DNA of 64,000 nucleotides from a phage: sequence record OZ336096.1; one strand, given 5' to 3'. Numbering within the stretch: position 1 is the stretch's first letter; every line of letters begins with the position of its first letter. The translations under genes were made by a program, and so were the position numbers. A model generated the notes under the pieces. The model saw only the letters and a program-made list of their open reading frames with translations. It made no database searches and had not been told where the DNA came from. Positions 11,259 through 60,379 of this stretch are shown here, one piece after another.

Positions 11259-19253
<7,995 letters not shown>

Positions 19254-26103: not shown

Positions 26104-26433
26104 TTAATCTGCCAACCTTAAATTGAAATTAACACCAAATTTTTCACATACTTCCAACATATACTCAAGGGAGACGTTACCAGTGAGATGGATTATGTTG
26201 GATACACGAGCCTGAGAGATACCACAAATTTTAGCGACTTGCTCTTGAGAAAGACCTCTGGATTTAATCTCTCTCTTAAAACGATGTGCAACGAAATCTC
26301 TCATTTCGTCTACATCCATTGGACAGATGTAATTTTCCATTTCAGCCTCTCTATCAGCCTCCCAATCATCTTGTGGAGCATAAGGGTCAAAAACCTCATT
26401 CATCTTTCTTCTTCCGTTTGCGTGAAGCATCAA
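26104..26433 (-). CDS. HTH (XRE-family-like) DNA-binding protein
   Basis: Contains LSQEQVAKICGISQARVSNI helix-turn-helix signature; real start may be the internal ATG near 26403. Confidence 0.55.
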   Translation of the reverse strand: MMLHANGRRKMNEVFDPYAPQDDWEADREAEMENYICPMDVDEMRDFVAHRFKREIKSRGLSQEQVAKICGISQARVSNIIHLTGNVSLEYMLEVCEKFGVNFNLRLAD

Positions 26434-26608
26434 TCAATGAATCTATGTTTGTAGCTCTAACCTTTTCACGTTCATCGTTAAGATAATCATCAAGAGCCTT
26501 TTCAATCTGTGAATCATCTTGACAGATAACTGTAAAGACTGTAAAGCCGTCTGTATCGTCAATTATCTTACCATAACCGCTTCTGGGATGTAACTTTTTA
26601 AGAGCCAT
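26396..26608 (-). CDS. hypothetical protein
   Basis: 70-aa ORF with basic C-terminus (RKRKKKDE). Confidence 0.4.
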   Translation of the reverse strand: MALKKLHPRSGYGKIIDDTDGFTVFTVICQDDSQIEKALDDYLNDEREKVRATNIDSLIDASRKRKKKDE

Positions 26609-26609
26609 A

Positions 26610-26993
26610 TTAGATACCTGTACAGCTTCTGTTTTCTAAGAAATACTCAACACCATACATAGCTTTTTGCATCAAATCTTCTTTAAACTGGATACGATGA
26701 TTGAGCATAGCCTGTACATCAATATCATCATGGTGTTTCTCTTTAATATTTGCAGATTGCAGGAAATACTCTGCAAGAACACGATATTGATAGTCAGTAA
26801 CCTTATCAGTCATCTCTGTTAAAGACTCTTCAGAGATTGGTTTAAGTAACTCACCATTAGCCAGAGCAACACCTTTTACAATCTGGCAAGTGTCTTCTGG
26901 AACACCTGATAAGTCCACATTTGGAAGTTCTGTTGCATTGACTGGTAAATTCATTGCCATAACCATTGCAGCAGCTAATAAAATCTTTTTCAT
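26610..26993 (-). CDS. secreted protein (signal peptide)
   Basis: 127-aa ORF starting MKKILLAAAMVMAMNLPVNA, a typical Sec signal peptide. Confidence 0.5.
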   Translation of the reverse strand: MKKILLAAAMVMAMNLPVNATELPNVDLSGVPEDTCQIVKGVALANGELLKPISEESLTEMTDKVTDYQYRVLAEYFLQSANIKEKHHDDIDVQAMLNHRIQFKEDLMQKAMYGVEYFLENRSCTGI

Positions 26994-27037
26994 AATGACC
27001 TCAAAGTTATATTAAATTTTGTATTACATTGAGTATA

Positions 27038-27084
27038 AAAATAAGCTATAACACCTGACTTGTCAACAGATTTTATAGCTTATT
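27038..27084. promoter_or_regulatory. 13-bp perfect inverted repeat flanking a TTGACA-containing 21-bp loop
   Basis: AAATAAGCTATAA ... TTATAGCTTATTT; on the - strand the hairpin is followed by a T-rich tract (possible ligase terminator) and encloses a -35-like TTGACA. Confidence 0.4.
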
Positions 27085-27426
27085 TGGCAGATTTTTTATA
27101 AGGCTACTGCCATCCTTCCATACCAGACTACACCATGCCAGACCAGACTTCACATCACCCTACCGTGCAATACATTACTTAAAAAACCTCTTAGAAAGAC
27201 TCTTAAGTGATGCTGGTGAGTACCCGTTGGTTTATGCTGCTCAGTATACTCACCAAATTTTCTATGTCAACAACTTTTATATAAAAGTCCTGATAGCTAT
27301 ATGTGTTACAAAACAGAAGATTGTGAACAAAACACCCATTGCAAAAGATGTGTCCAAAAGCTTACTTGCAATGTATGACAATACAAAGACAACCAGTATA
27401 AACAGAATGACTGTACTGAACATAGT

Positions 27427-28527
27427 TTACTCATAATCCCTAATAACTAGCCCTACAGGAAACTGTAAAGAACCCTTACGAGTCATCTTCTGGAACTGAA
27501 CAGTTAAAGGTTTCCCGATAAACTCTTCAGGATGCTCAGCAAGATACTGTTTCTTCTCATGAGTAGTCTTCCATGATACATCTACAAAGACGTTAGGAAG
27601 AGTCTCTACAACGAACTTGCCATGACCACGCTTATCAGTCTTTACACCAGTCACTTTAAACTCTTCAGTGTGCATCTTCTTGTGCTTAATCAAGAAGTAT
27701 GAACGGTGACAGCACTCATAGAAGGAGTCTTCAGAGATTGAACGGTACATTGCACCTTCAAACTGAGCTTCAACCCACTTATCATGGGCTTCATCAAACT
27801 CTTCCCAAGAATTTACACGGATAGTCTGTACAGGAACCACTCTACAGGTATCCCCAAGCTCAACAATAGGTGAACTATCAATAACTTCACGACGCTCAGG
27901 CCAAGATTTTGAATTGTCACAGATATCATACCAGTAGAATTTAAGAAGGTGACGGTCTGGATTGTCAGCATTCTTAATCATAGACACAATATCTTCTAAG
28001 TCCTGCCCATGAGCATAAATCTCACCATCAAAGTCTTCAACTTGTGGATGTAATTTAAGCAACAAAAGCAAATCTGGAATTAGTTCTGCTGGAACGTTGT
28101 AAACAGTATTCTCACGAGAATAAGCTGTGAAACTAACTGTATCAGCATCTCTTGAAATTCTACAACGTACACCATCAAGTTTTGGTTGAGCATCAGCAGG
28201 GAACTTCAAATACTTTGCATGGCTAACCTTTGCAGCATCATGAGCAAGCTGTACACCTACCTTCTCAGTATTCTGTGCAGACTCTTTTGTATAAGCATAA
28301 CCTTTACGGTCAACTTGCTTTTTATACTTAGCAGCAACTTCAAAGAGAGCTTGCTGTTCAGCGTTACGCTCATTCTTTTTACCGATGTTTTTAGGTTCTG
28401 CTGTATACTCTTCAAACATCATCTTGCCATTTTCTTTACCGTAGGTTGTAATAACTTTGTCACCTACAGCAACACATGACCAAACGTTAAAAGAGCCATC
28501 TTTATTTTGTTTGTACAGTATTGTCAT
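27427..28527 (-). CDS. ATP-dependent DNA ligase
   Basis: 366-aa ORF containing the ligase adenylation motif KLDG (PKLDGVRC). Confidence 0.85.
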   Translation of the reverse strand: MTILYKQNKDGSFNVWSCVAVGDKVITTYGKENGKMMFEEYTAEPKNIGKKNERNAEQQALFEVAAKYKKQVDRKGYAYTKESAQNTEKVGVQLAHDAAKVSHAKYLKFPADAQPKLDGVRCRISRDADTVSFTAYSRENTVYNVPAELIPDLLLLLKLHPQVEDFDGEIYAHGQDLEDIVSMIKNADNPDRHLLKFYWYDICDNSKSWPERREVIDSSPIVELGDTCRVVPVQTIRVNSWEEFDEAHDKWVEAQFEGAMYRSISEDSFYECCHRSYFLIKHKKMHTEEFKVTGVKTDKRGHGKFVVETLPNVFVDVSWKTTHEKKQYLAEHPEEFIGKPLTVQFQKMTRKGSLQFPVGLVIRDYE

Positions 28528-29400: not shown

Positions 29401-29934
29401 TCAACTTAGTTTTGCAAACTCTCCGTGGAGTTTAATAGCAGCTTCACAGTAAGCTTTATGGGCTTCTTCAGGGGTGTCATGGTGACCTAAAAACATCTTC
29501 TTACCTTTATAACTTATCTGTGCGACCCACTTACCAGACTTCTTCTTAAGACTTACACCCTTGTACCCAGATTTATTGGTGACTGGTTTACCTTTATTCC
29601 AAGCACTTTGAAAATCATCTGCTTCCCTTAAGTTTACAATCCTGTTGTCAAGCGAGTCTCCGTTGATATGGTCAATGATACCTTTTGGCATCTTGCCATA
29701 CACGTAAAGCCATGCGAGTCTGTGTGCTTTATGTGCTTTCTTGTCAAAATAGATACTAATCTGTTTATGACCACTTGAATCAGTCTGGATATTACCTGCC
29801 ACCTTTCCTGCATAATTACTGTTAAAAACACTAACAGCTCTTGATTTACCTTCTCTACGAAGCCAAGTAAAGACCCCTGTTTCGGGGTCATAGTGCAGCA
29901 GCTCCTTTAAACGTTTTTGTAAAATTAAGTCCAT
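29401..29934 (-). CDS. HNH-AP2 homing endonuclease (free-standing)
   Basis: HNH motif (IDHINGDSLDNRIVNLR) followed by AP2-type DNA-binding domain (YKGVS...KWVAQISYKGKKMFLGHHDTPEEAHKAY); sits immediately 3' of DNA polymerase exon 2. Confidence 0.8.
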   Translation of the reverse strand: MDLILQKRLKELLHYDPETGVFTWLRREGKSRAVSVFNSNYAGKVAGNIQTDSSGHKQISIYFDKKAHKAHRLAWLYVYGKMPKGIIDHINGDSLDNRIVNLREADDFQSAWNKGKPVTNKSGYKGVSLKKKSGKWVAQISYKGKKMFLGHHDTPEEAHKAYCEAAIKLHGEFAKLS

Positions 29935-54720: not shown

Positions 54721-55077
54721 GAGAGAGATTAAAAGATGACTAAATCACTTTATGCAGTACCAGCAGGTTTAAACGCAGATGCTTACAAGTCATCGCATAT
54801 ATATCAGTATCCAGATGCTACACAGTATCTTATGCTGAACCTGACGCCACGTAGTGACAAATGGTTTAACAGCCCCTTAGCAATTGATGGTGTAGTAGCT
54901 TTTGGTATTCAACGTTTCGTTAAAGATTACTTGATAGACCACTGGAACGCCACTTTCTTTGAACGTGATAAAAAAGAAGCAATTGACGAAATCTTAGAAG
55001 TCATGAACGGTGTTCTGGGCAAAGATGCTATTGGTCGAGAGCATTGGGAAGCACTTCACGACTTAGGTTATCTGCCA

Positions 55078-55960
55078 GTCGAAGTATACGCTGTAGAAGA
55101 AGGCACAGTTGTTCCAATGCGTGTCCCAATGATTGTCTTCCAGAACACTGTTTCAGGCTTCCATTGGGTAGCAGGTTATCTGGAAGACGCTTTCTCTGCT
55201 GAGATTTGGAAGGCTTGTACCATTGCAACTATTGCATTGCACTACAAACGTATCTGTAAGAAGTGGGCTGACCTTACTTGTGACAACGACTTGCATTTAC
55301 CTTATCAGTGCCATGACTTTGCTATGCGTGGTATGTCCGGCTTTACTGATGACGCATTTAACGCTGTAGGCCACTTAACCAGCTTTAAAGGAACTGATAG
55401 CTTCCCTGCTGTATATACAGCTAAACGCATCTACGGGCAGTCTTACCCAATCTCTGATATTGGTGGTTCTGTACCAGCCACTGAACACTCTGTAATGTGT
55501 GCAAACATTGCTTGGGAAGGTGGTAATGAATTGATTGAAGAAGAAAGACGCTTCAAAGGTGAGTTGCAAACCTTCCGTCGCTTCTTAACAGAGACTTACC
55601 CAACTGGTATTGCAAGTGTTGTTTCAGACACTTATAACTTCTGGAGAACTGTGTCAGAAATCTTACCAGCACTCCGTAAAGAGATTATGGAACGTGATGG
55701 CAAACTGGTAATTCGTCCTGACTCTGGAGACCCTGTACATATTGTCACAGGTTATAAAGCAATCCACTTAGAGTGTGCTAAAAAGGCTTATTACGAGCAC
55801 CTAAGCAAGCTAGAGGCAGGTGATACAATGCTGAGCACCGTCCTGAACATGAAGCTTGAAGATATTAACTATGTTATGGCTGGGTGGTTACGTGCAGAAG
55901 GCTATGAAATGGTGGTTGACAGAGAAGACTTTGAAGTAGCCGATACAGTGTTGCTGAAAG
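55078..55960 (+). repeat. tandem duplication, copy 1 (883 bp)
   Basis: Identical to 55998..56880 at 920-bp offset wherever checked by eye. Confidence 0.85.
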
Positions 55961-55997
55961 CTTCATGTTCAGGACGGTGCTCAGCATTGTATCACCT
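55961..55997 (+). repeat. inverted 37-bp junction segment
   Basis: Exact reverse complement of 55818..55854; abuts the palindromic AAGCTT at the end of copy 1. Confidence 0.85.
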
Positions 55998-56880
55998 GTC
56001 GAAGTATACGCTGTAGAAGAAGGCACAGTTGTTCCAATGCGTGTCCCAATGATTGTCTTCCAGAACACTGTTTCAGGCTTCCATTGGGTAGCAGGTTATC
56101 TGGAAGACGCTTTCTCTGCTGAGATTTGGAAGGCTTGTACCATTGCAACTATTGCATTGCACTACAAACGTATCTGTAAGAAGTGGGCTGACCTTACTTG
56201 TGACAACGACTTGCATTTACCTTATCAGTGCCATGACTTTGCTATGCGTGGTATGTCCGGCTTTACTGATGACGCATTTAACGCTGTAGGCCACTTAACC
56301 AGCTTTAAAGGAACTGATAGCTTCCCTGCTGTATATACAGCTAAACGCATCTACGGGCAGTCTTACCCAATCTCTGATATTGGTGGTTCTGTACCAGCCA
56401 CTGAACACTCTGTAATGTGTGCAAACATTGCTTGGGAAGGTGGTAATGAATTGATTGAAGAAGAAAGACGCTTCAAAGGTGAGTTGCAAACCTTCCGTCG
56501 CTTCTTAACAGAGACTTACCCAACTGGTATTGCAAGTGTTGTTTCAGACACTTATAACTTCTGGAGAACTGTGTCAGAAATCTTACCAGCACTCCGTAAA
56601 GAGATTATGGAACGTGATGGCAAACTGGTAATTCGTCCTGACTCTGGAGACCCTGTACATATTGTCACAGGTTATAAAGCAATCCACTTAGAGTGTGCTA
56701 AAAAGGCTTATTACGAGCACCTAAGCAAGCTAGAGGCAGGTGATACAATGCTGAGCACCGTCCTGAACATGAAGCTTGAAGATATTAACTATGTTATGGC
56801 TGGGTGGTTACGTGCAGAAGGCTATGAAATGGTGGTTGACAGAGAAGACTTTGAAGTAGCCGATACAGTGTTGCTGAAAG
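55998..56880 (+). repeat. tandem duplication, copy 2 (883 bp)
   Basis: Identical to 55078..55960. Confidence 0.85.
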
Positions 56881-57450
56881 ATGCTTACATCAACGGCTCT
56901 GCAAACGTTGTAACACGTCCTGTAGCGGAGATTGATGGAGCTATCAAGACACTGTATAACATCTTTGGGGGAACTATTAACTCTAAAGGGTTTAAGGTAC
57001 TGGATGAGCACATCGGCCTTATCTATGGTGACTCTATCACACTGGAACGTGCAAACGAAATCCTGAAGCGTCTGTATGAAATGGGTTTTGCAAGCTCTAA
57101 CGTGGTGTTTGGTGTAGGTTCTTACACTTACCAGTACATGACTCGTGACACCTTTGCATTTGCTGTCAAAGCAACTCTTGCAAGCATTGGTGGTAAAGAG
57201 ATTATGCTTGCAAAAGACCCTAAAACAGATAGTGGTGTTAAAAAATCTGCCTTTGGTGGTGTAGCACCTATGTGGGATGGTGATAAGCTGAAAGCTGTAG
57301 ATGGCTATGGATTCCAGAGTTTTGCGGATGTACTTGACCACCCAGCTTGTGCTTTACGTTTAGTCTTTAGTGACTCTGAGCAGTTCGGTTACACAACTCT
57401 TGGTGATATTCGAAATAATATTGACAAGCAGCTTTAAAAGTATATGATAA

Positions 57451-58012: not shown

Positions 58013-60379
58013 ATGCGCATGGTAAACGACCACGCAGAAGTGATTAAGAGTTCAACTTCTTTAGAGACGTCTCAAGCACAGATTACAATGACACCTGAAA
58101 TGTTCAGCCTTTTGAGTTCTGGTGTATATACCTTTAAAGAAAGGGCAGTGATTCGTGAACTGTCATGTAACGCAGTAGATGCTCAGAAAGAAGCTGGAAA
58201 AGAGAATATTCCGTTCCATGTGCATTTACCTACTCGTTTTGAACCTTACTTTGAAGTCCGTGATTTTGGAACTGGATTGACTCATGATAAAGTTATGAGT
58301 TTGTACCTAAACTACGGGGCTTCTACGAAGAATGACTCTAATGACTACATTGGTGCAATGGGTATCGGCTCAAAATCTCCATTTGCAATTGCTCAGTCAT
58401 TCACAGTGTCTAGCTATGTTGACGGTGTTGTTAATAAGTATTCTGTTTATCTTGAGAATGGTATCCCTCAAGTAACTAAGCTGACCACTAACCCAACAAA
58501 AGAACCTAACGGTTTAGCTGTACGTGTGGCAGTTGCTGACCACCGTATTTCAAAGTTCTTTGAAGAGGCTGGTAATGTATACTCATACTTTGCTGTAAAA
58601 CCAGAGAGTAATGTGGAGTATAATGATATATTAGCAGATATGGATGTGATTGCTCGTGAAGAAGGTGTCTATGATGCCATGACTCATAAGCATAGCTGGC
58701 GTTCAAGCAGCAATAGAACAGAGTTTAACGTGGTTATGGGTAATATTGCCTACCCAGTTAATATGGAGGCATTACTTGGTGATGATTTCTTCAAAGTCTT
58801 GCCAGAATTTTTCCGTAGGAGCGTAGACCTTGTAAACATCTACATGCCTATTGGCTCAGTTGCTATTGCAGCTTCTCGTGAAGCATTGCAGATGAATGAT
58901 ACGACAAAAAATGTTATCATTGAGGCTACTAAAAAGATAACTGAAGCGATTACAAAGGATGTTATCAAGAAAGTTAATAGTCAACCTACACTCATGGATG
59001 CTGCACAGGCTTATGCTGAGTTACGCTTGAACTCACGAGAGATGTTTAATGCTGTGTGTCCAAAGCTAGAGTGGGGAGGTGTTAAGCTTGATTCTCTGGA
59101 AGAAGAATTACTAAACATTCGTCGTGGAATTATCTACGCAGAAGACGGCTCAGTCATTTACGAACGTGACGGTAAAGGCAATATTAAGGTTGATAGGAAC
59201 GGGAACAATATACCTAAAGTAGACTACCTTTATGACCCAGTTGCTTATGTCAAGTTCAACTCTTTAGAGAGTAAGATTCGTGCAACATCGCTTTCCTACA
59301 CTCAAGAGGCAAGTATGTTCAATATCTTTGGCGCAATGCGTAAAAGCCAAATTGAACAGTTTTTGTTTGTTATAAACGACCGTCGCAATAAAAATGGTAC
59401 TGAGAAGACTGTAGGACGCAATCAGATTCTGCGTGGTGCATGTCGAGACTATGCCAGTGAGTCTAGTCTGTTTCACAGATACAACGGTATCGTCTTTGTA
59501 TTCTCGACTGAAAAAGAGTTAGACAACCTAATCAATCTGCACAAACTTGATAAAAGCTTGTTAAAGATTGTGAAGATGTCTGATAAGGAACATCATTATC
59601 AGCGTAAAGAAGCTGTAAGAGGTGTTGTAAAACTTTGGAAAGCTGTTCCAGCAGAAGGTGTAGCTTCATACAAAGAGGTGTCAGAAGACTTAGATACGAT
59701 TGAAGAGCCTCAGCTTTATATTAAGGCAGTAGGCGACACAGTTGATGGCGAATGTTTTTGCTCATCTCCAGAAGATGTAGCTAAGTCAGTTGCCAATGTC
59801 ATTGGAAAGACAGTATATGTTTTCCGAAAAGCAAATTGGAAAAAGATACCAGAAGACTGGATTGAAGTAGATGAGAAGCTCTTGAACGACAGCTTAACTG
59901 ATGTTCATTGGATTAATCATAACAGATATATGACACGTATCTATATGAATGGTGTCCTCGACCTTACAAGCAGTTGGATTATTGCCAGAAACTTTACGTT
60001 CAATAACAGAAAGATTTCTCGTGGCTATTGCTATTCACGAGACACAAACAAAACCATCTTCTTAGAAGGTAATGAAGATGCTGTTGAGGCAATGTTTGGT
60101 AAAATCCAATACGTTGCTGCACCGTTTGCATACACTTATACTATTAGTAGATTGCAAACTTTGAAAGAATGTCTTGACAACGATACAAAGCTGTACAAGA
60201 AAATCAAGAAAGCTGGTGACCGTATGGTCATTAAGGTGACAAACTACCTTTCAAAAAGAAAACAAGAAAACTTCTTGCTTTCTCATTTAGATTGGAATAA
60301 AGTGTCACCCATCGAAGTGAGTAAGTTCTTGGGCTTTGATGTGAAGTGTGTTCCAGAAGGGACTACAATTTACGATTAA
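58013..60379 (+). CDS. rIIA: rIIA-like protein with GHKL (Bergerat-fold) ATPase domain
   Basis: 788-aa ORF; N-terminus carries GHKL boxes (ELSCNAVDA; DFGTGL; GAMGIGSKSPFA) as in T4 rIIA; rIIA assignment is by domain and size only. Confidence 0.5.
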   Translation: MRMVNDHAEVIKSSTSLETSQAQITMTPEMFSLLSSGVYTFKERAVIRELSCNAVDAQKEAGKENIPFHVHLPTRFEPYFEVRDFGTGLTHDKVMSLYLNYGASTKNDSNDYIGAMGIGSKSPFAIAQSFTVSSYVDGVVNKYSVYLENGIPQVTKLTTNPTKEPNGLAVRVAVADHRISKFFEEAGNVYSYFAVKPESNVEYNDILADMDVIAREEGVYDAMTHKHSWRSSSNRTEFNVVMGNIAYPVNMEALLGDDFFKVLPEFFRRSVDLVNIYMPIGSVAIAASREALQMNDTTKNVIIEATKKITEAITKDVIKKVNSQPTLMDAAQAYAELRLNSREMFNAVCPKLEWGGVKLDSLEEELLNIRRGIIYAEDGSVIYERDGKGNIKVDRNGNNIPKVDYLYDPVAYVKFNSLESKIRATSLSYTQEASMFNIFGAMRKSQIEQFLFVINDRRNKNGTEKTVGRNQILRGACRDYASESSLFHRYNGIVFVFSTEKELDNLINLHKLDKSLLKIVKMSDKEHHYQRKEAVRGVVKLWKAVPAEGVASYKEVSEDLDTIEEPQLYIKAVGDTVDGECFCSSPEDVAKSVANVIGKTVYVFRKANWKKIPEDWIEVDEKLLNDSLTDVHWINHNRYMTRIYMNGVLDLTSSWIIARNFTFNNRKISRGYCYSRDTNKTIFLEGNEDAVEAMFGKIQYVAAPFAYTYTISRLQTLKECLDNDTKLYKKIKKAGDRMVIKVTNYLSKRKQENFLLSHLDWNKVSPIEVSKFLGFDVKCVPEGTTIYD

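Follow-up and report, generated by a model that had tools for sequence, protein, structure and literature searches.

On the evidence of its sequence, the 433-bp gap at positions 26,994 to 27,426 of the 64,000-nucleotide stretch of record OZ336096.1 analyzed here (hereafter, the window) carries on its minus strand a type II vrRNA gene of a SUSP1-clade VIPR (Viral Interference Programmable Repeats) system. The window comes from a Felix O1-like myovirus (Felixounavirus), and the gap separates the gene of an ATP-dependent DNA ligase from that of a 127-aa signal-peptide protein. The element is unaccompanied by the protein genes vipr and vap1, and its guide matches vipr itself. We favor the reading, to which we assign a probability of roughly 60%, that this orphan vrRNA would borrow the Vipr protein of a co-infecting rival phage and silence the rival's vipr operon.

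VIPR was described in 2026 as a minimal RNA-guided DNA-binding phage system that may pre-date CRISPR, and its guide, the vrRNA, consists of 9–16 YNNGG repeats followed by an invariable 3′ tail of about 40 nt that folds into a pseudoknot (10.64898/2026.04.26.720920, 10.64898/2026.04.26.720927). Each GGY is bound by one Vipr protomer (structures in 10.64898/2026.04.26.720927, PDB 36pp). Vipr, a minimal RAMP of about 20 kDa, forms a helical filament in which the NN dinucleotides pair with double-stranded DNA, every third base being skipped, and the bound filament represses transcription on either strand; guides of the SUSP1 clade mostly aim at an E. coli satellite (10.64898/2026.04.26.720920, 10.64898/2026.04.26.720927). 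The vrRNAs of phage SUSP1 were seen as ~100-nt RNAs by small RNA sequencing and were pulled down with Vipr, and those native vrRNAs that were tested each repressed GFP (10.64898/2026.04.26.720920).

Because the surrounding genes all lie on the minus strand, the gap is read in that orientation throughout. It contains a lead-in hairpin (CACTTAAGAGTCTTTCTAAGAGGTTTTTTAAGT; 27209..27177, minus strand), recognized by its fold and by its copies in relatives, which precede many vrRNA arrays, including SUSP1 vrRNA1 and vrRNA4, and are repeated within both VpaE1 and SUSP1. A tract of twelve pentamers follows (27176..27117, minus strand: AATGT ATTGC ACGGT AGGGT GATGT GAAGT CTGGT CTGGC ATGGT GTAGT CTGGT ATGGA), in which every unit has G at position 4, 11 of the 12 have Y at position 5, and the conserved ATGGA closes the series. 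Scored over eight units, the array reaches 20 out of 24, against a window-wide mean of 5.5 (standard deviation 2.0), and it is the sole such array in the 64 kb. As RNA, the tract is predicted to be unstructured (z = +0.86 relative to shuffles), with stable hairpins on either side. A previous sequence-only reading of this DNA had listed GTCTGGT-type direct repeats here; these are real and form the visible part of the in-register NNGGY array on the minus strand, but that reading dwelt on the inverted repeats and missed the pentamer array, which is the informative element. Its suggestion that the region may encode a small RNA is borne out in the form of the minus-strand vrRNA gene, whose expression in this phage we infer.

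The tract runs into a conserved 3′ tail (27117..27085, minus strand) predicted to form an H-type pseudoknot, with AAGG/CCTT as stem 1 and TGGCAG/CTGCCA as stem 2. Among 18 distinct tails, 99.4% of cells are paired and eight of the nine pairs have changed on both sides; none of 500 shuffles equaled the pseudoknot, and slid controls were 30–45% paired. When the printed sequences are compared, the window is identical to the SUSP1 vrRNA4 tail from the ATGGA unit through the downstream hairpin and TATACT. The predicted product would be a vrRNA of about 100 nt, transcribed from the minus strand and covering 27176..27085.

Of the 35 related loci scanned, most have comparable arrays here, of 7–19 in-register NNGGY units. 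Both flanking genes were anchored in 27 related loci, where the interval from the ligase gene to gp127 measures 273–2132 nt; in seven others it is longer. Loci without vipr and vap1 have gaps of 273–608 nt with one or two arrays, and those with them have gaps of 1.7–2.1 kb, with up to five arrays plus genes of about 200 and 146 aa. Conservation across related phages, which had been suggested as a check on the region, takes a particular form: the flanks are ~95% identical between phages, whereas the N positions of the arrays differ almost completely and the GGY and the 5-nt register are kept. Across 894 units from 84 arrays, G accounts for 81% of third positions (T 12%, A 6%) and 99% of fourth positions, and the fifth is mostly T (91%), with C at 8%; the N1N2 pair spans all 16 dinucleotides, AA and GA being the commonest. 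The possibility that the arrays are translated was rejected, since TAA and TGA are not avoided after GGT.

The identification as VIPR comes from the company that these arrays keep. When IMG/VR was scanned for exact runs of six GGTNN units, the matches listed included many unrelated viral contigs with clusters of degenerate arrays. Clustering of open reading frames (ORFs) then placed one family of ~195-aa proteins next to arrays in 30 of 46 array-bearing loci, mostly unrelated IMG/VR contigs, on the same strand as the arrays and usually directly upstream of them. The 200-aa protein of the long Felixounavirus loci belongs to this family, which contains no Pfam domain and has more than 500 database relatives. 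A profile built from 44 members matches PDB 36pp, ‘SUSP1 Vipr protein’, with an E value of 1.6e-79, and residues H17, K33, R138, D177 and R179, essential according to the VIPR papers, are invariant or nearly so in the family alignment; the AlphaFold model of Vipr has a pLDDT of 95.8. One of the long loci (L013) is SUSP1 itself, with one array upstream and three downstream of vipr–vap1, as published. Its vrRNA4 lies in the same position as the vrRNA of the window, between the ligase gene and the gene of a 126/127-aa secreted protein, and it shares the type of lead-in hairpin (two positions differ), the number of YNNGG units (twelve), the identical pseudoknot tail and the downstream hairpin with its promoter (P2); the promoter at the head of the locus (P1) is also identical in the two phages.

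Several other candidates were set aside on this match. A TRAP-like or CsrB-like protein-binding RNA was dropped once the neighboring family matched the Vipr structure and the published mechanism, and the same match disposed of an R-loop replication origin resembling immunoglobulin switch pentamers, primase sites, G-quadruplexes, Chi-like decoys, and T7-like repeat arrays near a packaging site. The tract is not a CRISPR array either, as its unit is 5 nt with two variable bases and no long repeat-spacer structure is present.

The wider collection of IMG/VR contigs (L037–L156) offers observations of its own. Up to 13 consecutive vrRNA-like arrays stand beside a vipr homologue (for example, L072 2215–3404, L060 4602–5049 and L081 2095–2616), and individual lineages have their own conserved first and last units, such as CAGGT...AAGGC or ...AAGGA ATGGT. 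A second small family of ~160 aa accompanies seven of the IMG/VR contigs and may represent a different vap.

The guide of the window was read with a decoder that re-implements the published rule (NN, skip one base, both strands, gapless). Units 2–11 constitute the guide, and their NN dinucleotides, AT AC AG GA GA CT CT AT GT CT, decode to ATx ACx AGx GAx GAx CTx CTx ATx GTx CTx, a pattern that fits the vipr codons for ITREELLMVL. The target reads ATC ACC AGA GAG GAA CTT CTG ATG GTT CTG, so that the skipped base is the wobble position throughout. The guide matches these codons at 20 of 20 positions in three loci (L007, L009 and L170), and in every vipr-carrying locus examined its best site is the same set of codons, at 18–20 of 20. 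The best score in vipr-less loci, 15–16 of 24, is at background. Shuffling the order of the units gave a null maximum of 17/20, and none of 200 shuffles reached the observed value. An exact scan of public metagenomes with the ten central dinucleotides returned a single contig, which is Felixounavirus-like and carries the match inside vipr; the full-length exact pattern has no match in IMG/VR. A scan of GTDB genomes gave one match, in a Bacteroidales metagenome-assembled genome, which was discarded as consistent with a rough chance estimate of about one. The 64-kb window itself contains no site within three mismatches of the 11-dinucleotide pattern. For a repression reporter, the candidate target insert for Vipr loaded with the vrRNA of the window is ATCACCAGAGAGGAACTTCTGATGGTTCT.

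These results bear on an ordinary reading of the gap as a control region, in which a terminator of the ligase operon and promoters of the next operon would be accompanied by repeats that are incidental or structural, as in a replication origin or an R-loop zone. Promoter-like and terminator-like elements are indeed present, the G-rich sense strand could favor R-loops, and annotators of relatives marked only ‘promoter’, ‘terminator’ and ‘repeat_region’ here, yet we regard this account as highly improbable: it leaves the 20/20 gapped match to vipr inexplicable, and it does not provide for a period-5 register with an invariant G that is tied, across unrelated contigs, to a single protein family whose structure is solved and whose RNA-guided function has been demonstrated.

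Guides against vipr are not confined to one sequence. In the single-array, vipr-less phages EC6 and JN01, the guides match the vipr codons for FLSHADTL (16/16 and 15/16, respectively), and in JH2, also single-array and vipr-less, the guide matches those for KLLNIKITG (17/18). By decoded match, vipr-less phages thus carry at least three independent anti-vipr guide families. None of the guides from vipr-carrying loci matches vipr.

The guide family of the window is found in 47 records of Salmonella and E. coli phages at 87–99% identity, including Felix O1 (NC_005282, 57750–57813), and the annotated records among the 47 show no feature at the matching stretch. When nine members of the family were compared for substitutions, their NN dinucleotides differed only in unit 4 (AG/AA/CG) and unit 8 (CT/TT), and these are the very codons at which the vipr target varies (AGA/AAA/CGA and CTG/TTG). 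For three guide variants there are partner alleles that match at 20/20, those of SUSP1, SUSP2 and Moogle among them. The remaining differences are T–C exchanges at Y (five sites) or fall on the first G (three sites), and the second G and the tail never vary, a substitution pattern that agrees with the protein contacts seen by cryo-EM (10.64898/2026.04.26.720927). This co-variation of guide and target argues for ongoing function.

The same pattern bears on the idea of a decoy, in which the orphan vrRNA would soak up the Vipr of a rival, at about 12 protomers per RNA, and leave the rival's own guides under-loaded, the match to vipr being secondary. The scaffold that Vipr binds, GGY repeats plus pseudoknot, is complete and lies directly downstream of a near-consensus sigma-70-like promoter, and RNA anti-CRISPRs that mimic repeats are known to act as decoys. 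A pure sponge, however, requires no particular NN dinucleotides, and here they are conserved, match vipr at 20/20 and co-vary with the target alleles, and three independent families converge on the same gene; a decoy is therefore improbable, if less so than a simple control region.

One further record touches on the guide family. Escherichia phage VpaE1_ev78 (LR597663.1, 59667–59735), a derivative of VpaE1, carries the anti-vipr guide family of the window at 95.7% identity, and at this locus VpaE1 has a full VIPR cassette. The difference between the two may reflect replacement of one allele by the other through recombination.

Searches for the partner genes were made with tblastn. SUSP1 Vipr and 30 diverse members of its family gave no match in the window, SUSP1 Vap1 gave none in the window or in L157, and neither vipr nor vap1 had a match in positions 60000–83202 of Felixounavirus LF82P3 (OZ035779.1, the closest BLAST record for 26400–28000), the stretch beyond the end of the window; the positive control, L013, was found with an E value of 6e-138. 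With neither vipr nor vap1 in the window or in the remainder of LF82P3, we call the vrRNA of the window an orphan. In these respects it differs from SUSP1 vrRNA4: SUSP1 encodes vipr, vap1 and three more vrRNAs, and the window has none of these; the SUSP1 guide reads the satellite at 23/24, and that of the window reads vipr at 20/20; and in the window P1 is fused directly to the last vrRNA. Both states of the locus are common, since Vipr proteins with 90% identity or more to the query are encoded in ~118 closely related records (mostly Felixounavirus-type) and ~260 records share the region.

The layout of the window, with P1 and a lead-in, one array and a vrRNA4-type tail, is what a deletion in a SUSP1-like locus would leave, and the repeated lead-ins or arrays that flank the cassette are the likely recombination substrate. 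Such a structure is equally what one expects of a relic, our main alternative: an ancestral VIPR phage would have acquired a guide against its own vipr, silenced itself and lost the cassette by deletion, with the vrRNA persisting without a present function. Anti-vipr guides and vipr never occur in one locus in our sample, it is doubtful what a phage would gain by silencing the anti-satellite system of a rival, and self-targeting CRISPR spacers, by analogy, go with degraded cas loci. Against this history stand the origin of at least three independent anti-vipr families, the maintenance of the guide family throughout its 47 records, the consensus promoter kept directly upstream, and the restriction of NN changes to positions where the target is polymorphic, with the other changes at positions that the protein tolerates and the second G and the tail invariant. 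Conservation and co-variation thus argue against a relic, which we consider unlikely even though it is the rival to be taken most seriously.

In the favored reading, P1 would transcribe the minus strand through the lead-in hairpin, the 12 YNNGG repeats and the pseudoknot tail, and transcription would end at the downstream hairpin and T run. The phage would have lost, or never had, vipr and vap1, so that the RNA would be unable to act alone. If a Felixounavirus or Suspvirus with a VIPR system infected the same cell, Vipr from this rival would load the orphan vrRNA, and the loaded complex would sit on the rival's vipr ORF, repressing vipr and the genes co-transcribed downstream; the orphan-bearing phage itself would present no target site. 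A broader proposal, which we put forward tentatively and at somewhat less than even odds, is that the orphan vrRNAs of vipr-less Felix O1-like phages, Felix O1 included, would be RNA-only anti-VIPR elements that turn a relative's Vipr on its own vipr, the full cassette and the anti-vipr orphan being competing alleles in an arms race that would show in the paired polymorphisms of guide and target. A Vipr roadblock might also bias recombination or replication toward the orphan allele.

Several observations weigh against this interpretation, of which the selective advantage is the weakest point. A benefit is doubtful because the known SUSP1-clade guides attack the satellite, not other Felixounaviruses, and because no VIPR guide was found against the window (best 19/24 among the guides examined). 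Being an orphan does not by itself imply an anti-vipr role, since the two-array, vipr-less relatives L002, L004/L029 (UAB_Phi87), L008, L016, L031 and L032 keep guides with 80–92% NN match to the satellite. No target was identified for the guide of ASO1A, and the best matches of the guides of ph2-2 and L006 fall in vipr and are individually non-significant. Five of the 12 units in the window have a non-G first base of GGY, the array as a whole being as degenerate at GGY as SUSP1 vrRNA4. The absence of vipr from the part of the genome outside the window is taken from one close relative, and the mutual exclusivity of the guide family and vipr holds for the sampled records.

The satellite that most SUSP1-clade guides address is a chromosomal E. 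coli element of about 10–14 kb with tape-measure and ‘phage baseplate protein’ genes, the latter 91–95% identical in DNA to window positions 13486–14050 (gene 13465–14262, phrog_3721). It also encodes serine recombinases, an N6-adenine methyltransferase and a helix-turn-helix (HTH) protein, is very mosaic, is integrated at mdtG, near yciI/tonB, in a DUF72 gene or near wrbA, and is present in 474–552 of 5426 complete E. coli genomes. Eleven satellite variants from E. coli loci (L158–L168) were located via the baseplate gene, which 474 of the 5426 genomes contain. They served as a control for the decoder: 47 of 77 unique guides have an NN match of at least 80% inside satellites, far above shuffled guides. 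The window guide reaches at best 17/24 in the 11 variants, which are very diverse, with a null maximum of 19. The flanks of SUSP1 vrRNAs have no BLAST match in E. coli genomes.

Three of the 11 satellites carry a vrRNA of their own (10–15 units, with a SUSP1 vrRNA1-type pseudoknot tail) and neither vipr nor vap; these lie on the minus strand of each locus at L165 3994..3920, L167 4209..4135 and L168 5979..5930. The presence of vrRNAs in E. coli satellites is stated in the published description (10.64898/2026.04.26.720920). Because satellites lack vipr and vap, their vrRNAs must use the Vipr of the helper phage in trans, which gives the guide-only use of another genome's Vipr a precedent. Like the element in the window, they are guide-only and end in a SUSP1-clade pseudoknot tail; they differ in residing in a satellite and not in a full-size lytic phage, in the vrRNA1 type of the tail, and in their reported targets, which are other satellites and not vipr (10.64898/2026.04.26.720920). 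Tested against the window, L157 and related phage loci, the guides of the satellite vrRNAs gave best scores of 16/24 and 12/14, which are unconvincing.

Other known systems resemble the proposed arrangement in part. A Pseudomonas fulva clade of VIPR systems targets VIPR with VIPR as a ‘shield’ in phage conflict (10.64898/2026.04.26.720920, where the text refers to fig. S15). So far as that text goes, the guides in question are parts of complete systems that encode a Vipr, whereas the vrRNA of the window must borrow that of its victim. In comparison with the window, leader RNAs that bind TRAP likewise present a period-5 array of triplets with free spacers, unstructured and flanked by hairpins, although the window has GGY in place of (G/U)AG, Vipr assembles as a helical RAMP filament where TRAP is an 11-mer ring, and the spacers carry information, with DNA recognition and not attenuation as the output. 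In Bacillus, these leaders comprise 11 G/UAG triplets separated by spacers of 2–3 nt, with one protein subunit bound per repeat. Virus-borne mini-CRISPR arrays and RNA anti-CRISPRs, which are solitary repeat units, also consist of only the RNA half of a system and exploit the proteins of another genome, whether against a competitor or to put the system itself out of action. They use a contiguous spacer and the proteins of the host, as opposed to a gapped NN code and the proteins of a co-infecting phage, and in the window the target is the effector gene itself.

VIPR and its vrRNAs, satellite-borne vrRNAs, and Pseudomonas-clade guides directed against other VIPR systems are already known (10.64898/2026.04.26.720920). 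The main text of neither VIPR preprint describes orphan vrRNAs that target vipr in full-size phages lacking it; membership of the published SUSP1 clade required a Vipr, so that vipr-less phages would have been left out of the sample (10.64898/2026.04.26.720920). The element is likewise unmentioned in the Felix O1 genome paper and the other papers searched. What is added here is that many well-studied phages, the classical typing phage Felix O1 among them, carry the RNA half of VIPR by itself, and that their guide is aimed at the effector gene of its own type of system, a guide-only counter-measure not found in the text of the VIPR preprints. The co-varying alleles of guide and target constitute a natural data set on how VIPR guides evolve, the passages of the two VIPR preprints consulted here leaving the origin of new guides unaddressed, and for annotation the arrays provide a simple rule by which vrRNA genes can be recognized with no vipr nearby.

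The inverted repeats and promoters of the gap can be placed around this gene. All of the sequence features named by the sequence-only reading exist, with coordinates shifted by 1 to about 10 bases, and the minus-strand promoter that it proposed is present in the form of two strong sigma-70-like sites. P1 (TTGACA-16-TATACT; 27270..27243, minus strand) matches the consensus at 11 of 12 positions and is identical in VpaE1 as well as in SUSP1. It heads the VIPR locus, standing before vrRNA1, vipr and vap1 in SUSP1 and directly upstream of the orphan vrRNA in the window. P2 (TTGACA-17-TATTTT; 27066..27038, minus strand), with 10 of 12 matches, would serve the downstream operon of the 127-aa, 70-aa and HTH genes and carries a ‘promoter’ annotation in phage ASO1A.

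The perfect 13-bp inverted repeat that had been reported (AAATAAGCTATAA/TTATAGCTTATTT) exists one base away from the position given for it, at 27039–27051/27073–27085, and it does enclose TTGACA, in its loop and on the minus strand. It extends to 19-nt arms with 89% complementarity (27039–27057/27067–27085), and as RNA this tail region has a predicted energy of −24.9 kcal/mol (z = −4.8), with none of 200 shuffles as good. The 19-bp inverted repeat followed by TTTTTAT (27035..27085, minus strand), which holds the 13-bp repeat and carries P2 in its loop and 3′ arm, is identical in SUSP1. The hairpin and T run resemble an intrinsic terminator ending the vrRNA unit; the earlier proposal of a terminator stands as far as the 19-bp hairpin, its T run and its stable fold are concerned, but the site is A+T-rich and was not called by a terminator scan.

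The second hairpin reported earlier, the 8-bp palindrome GGTGAGTA/TACTCACC, lies at 27215–27222/27247–27254 and not at about 27225–27265. With the flanking T/A it is a 9-bp repeat, whose fold has a z of −2.9 (1 of 200 shuffles as good). This repeat (TGGTGAGTA...TACTCACCA; 27214..27255) brackets the −10 box of P1 and the first ~25 nt of the transcript. Neither TGGTGAGTA/TACTCACCA nor a second, partial palindrome centered on the −10 box (TGGTGAGTATACTGAGCA) varies in any of the relatives. The repeats at 27214–27255 could be an operator or a leader structure; an operator there could be bound by, for example, Vap1 or the downstream HTH regulator.

The upstream part of the gap is occupied by a separate feature. 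The region had been described as containing only short, unconvincing ORFs, which does not hold for a 48-aa ORF (MFSTVILFILVVFVLSYIASKLLDTSFAMGVLFTIFCFVTHIAIRTFI; 27423..27277, minus strand) that starts 4 nt after the ligase stop and is predicted to encode a two-helix membrane protein. It matches phrog_22006 (E 2e-32), its variable columns are distributed over codon positions 1/2/3 as 10/2/17, and the most divergent pair of sequences differs by 14 synonymous and 9 mostly conservative codon changes. It is an annotated coding sequence in UAB_Phi87 and VpaE1, and is probably a genuine small membrane-protein gene, distinct from the vrRNA. Some relatives have it, others lack it, and in others a different short segment stands in its stead, so that three alternative states exist directly downstream of the ligase. 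In the SUSP1-type loci L008, L013, L020, L021 and L031, a different segment of ~190 nt takes its place between the ligase gene and P1, and in SUSP1 the segment includes a 62-aa ORF that begins with GTG.

The window represents 64 kb out of a genome of ~83–88 kb, and its positions 26400–28000 are 92–97% identical to more than 100 phage records by BLAST. The ligase gene occupies 27427–28527 (minus strand) and the 127-aa gene 26610–26993 (minus strand), the latter followed by the 70-aa gene and the HTH regulator; its ribosome-binding site, GAGG, and ATG (26991..27002, minus strand) mark the end of the non-coding region. The repeats of the region have no further copies elsewhere in the 64-kb window, no tRNA or tmRNA was found in the window, and among the matches listed for an Rfam covariance-model scan, five had E values of 4–9, all far under the gathering scores. 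The records of pinkbiff and KhF3 start at this locus; a genome terminus here was rejected, as these appear to be arbitrary assembly breaks, and the locus lies ~26 kb or ~57 kb from the start in other records.

Two observations concern other parts of the window. At 29401–29934 (minus strand), between other minus-strand ORFs, lies a 177-aa ORF that by eye has the look of an HNH/AP2-type homing endonuclease (...IDHINGDSLDNRIVNLREA...YKGV...KWVAQI...). On the plus strand, the overlapping ORFs at 54736–56016 and 55965–57437 both match nicotinamide phosphoribosyl transferase (NAMPT) families, covering the N-terminal and C-terminal parts, respectively, with the middle shared, which suggests a frameshift, duplication or insertion in a NAMPT gene.

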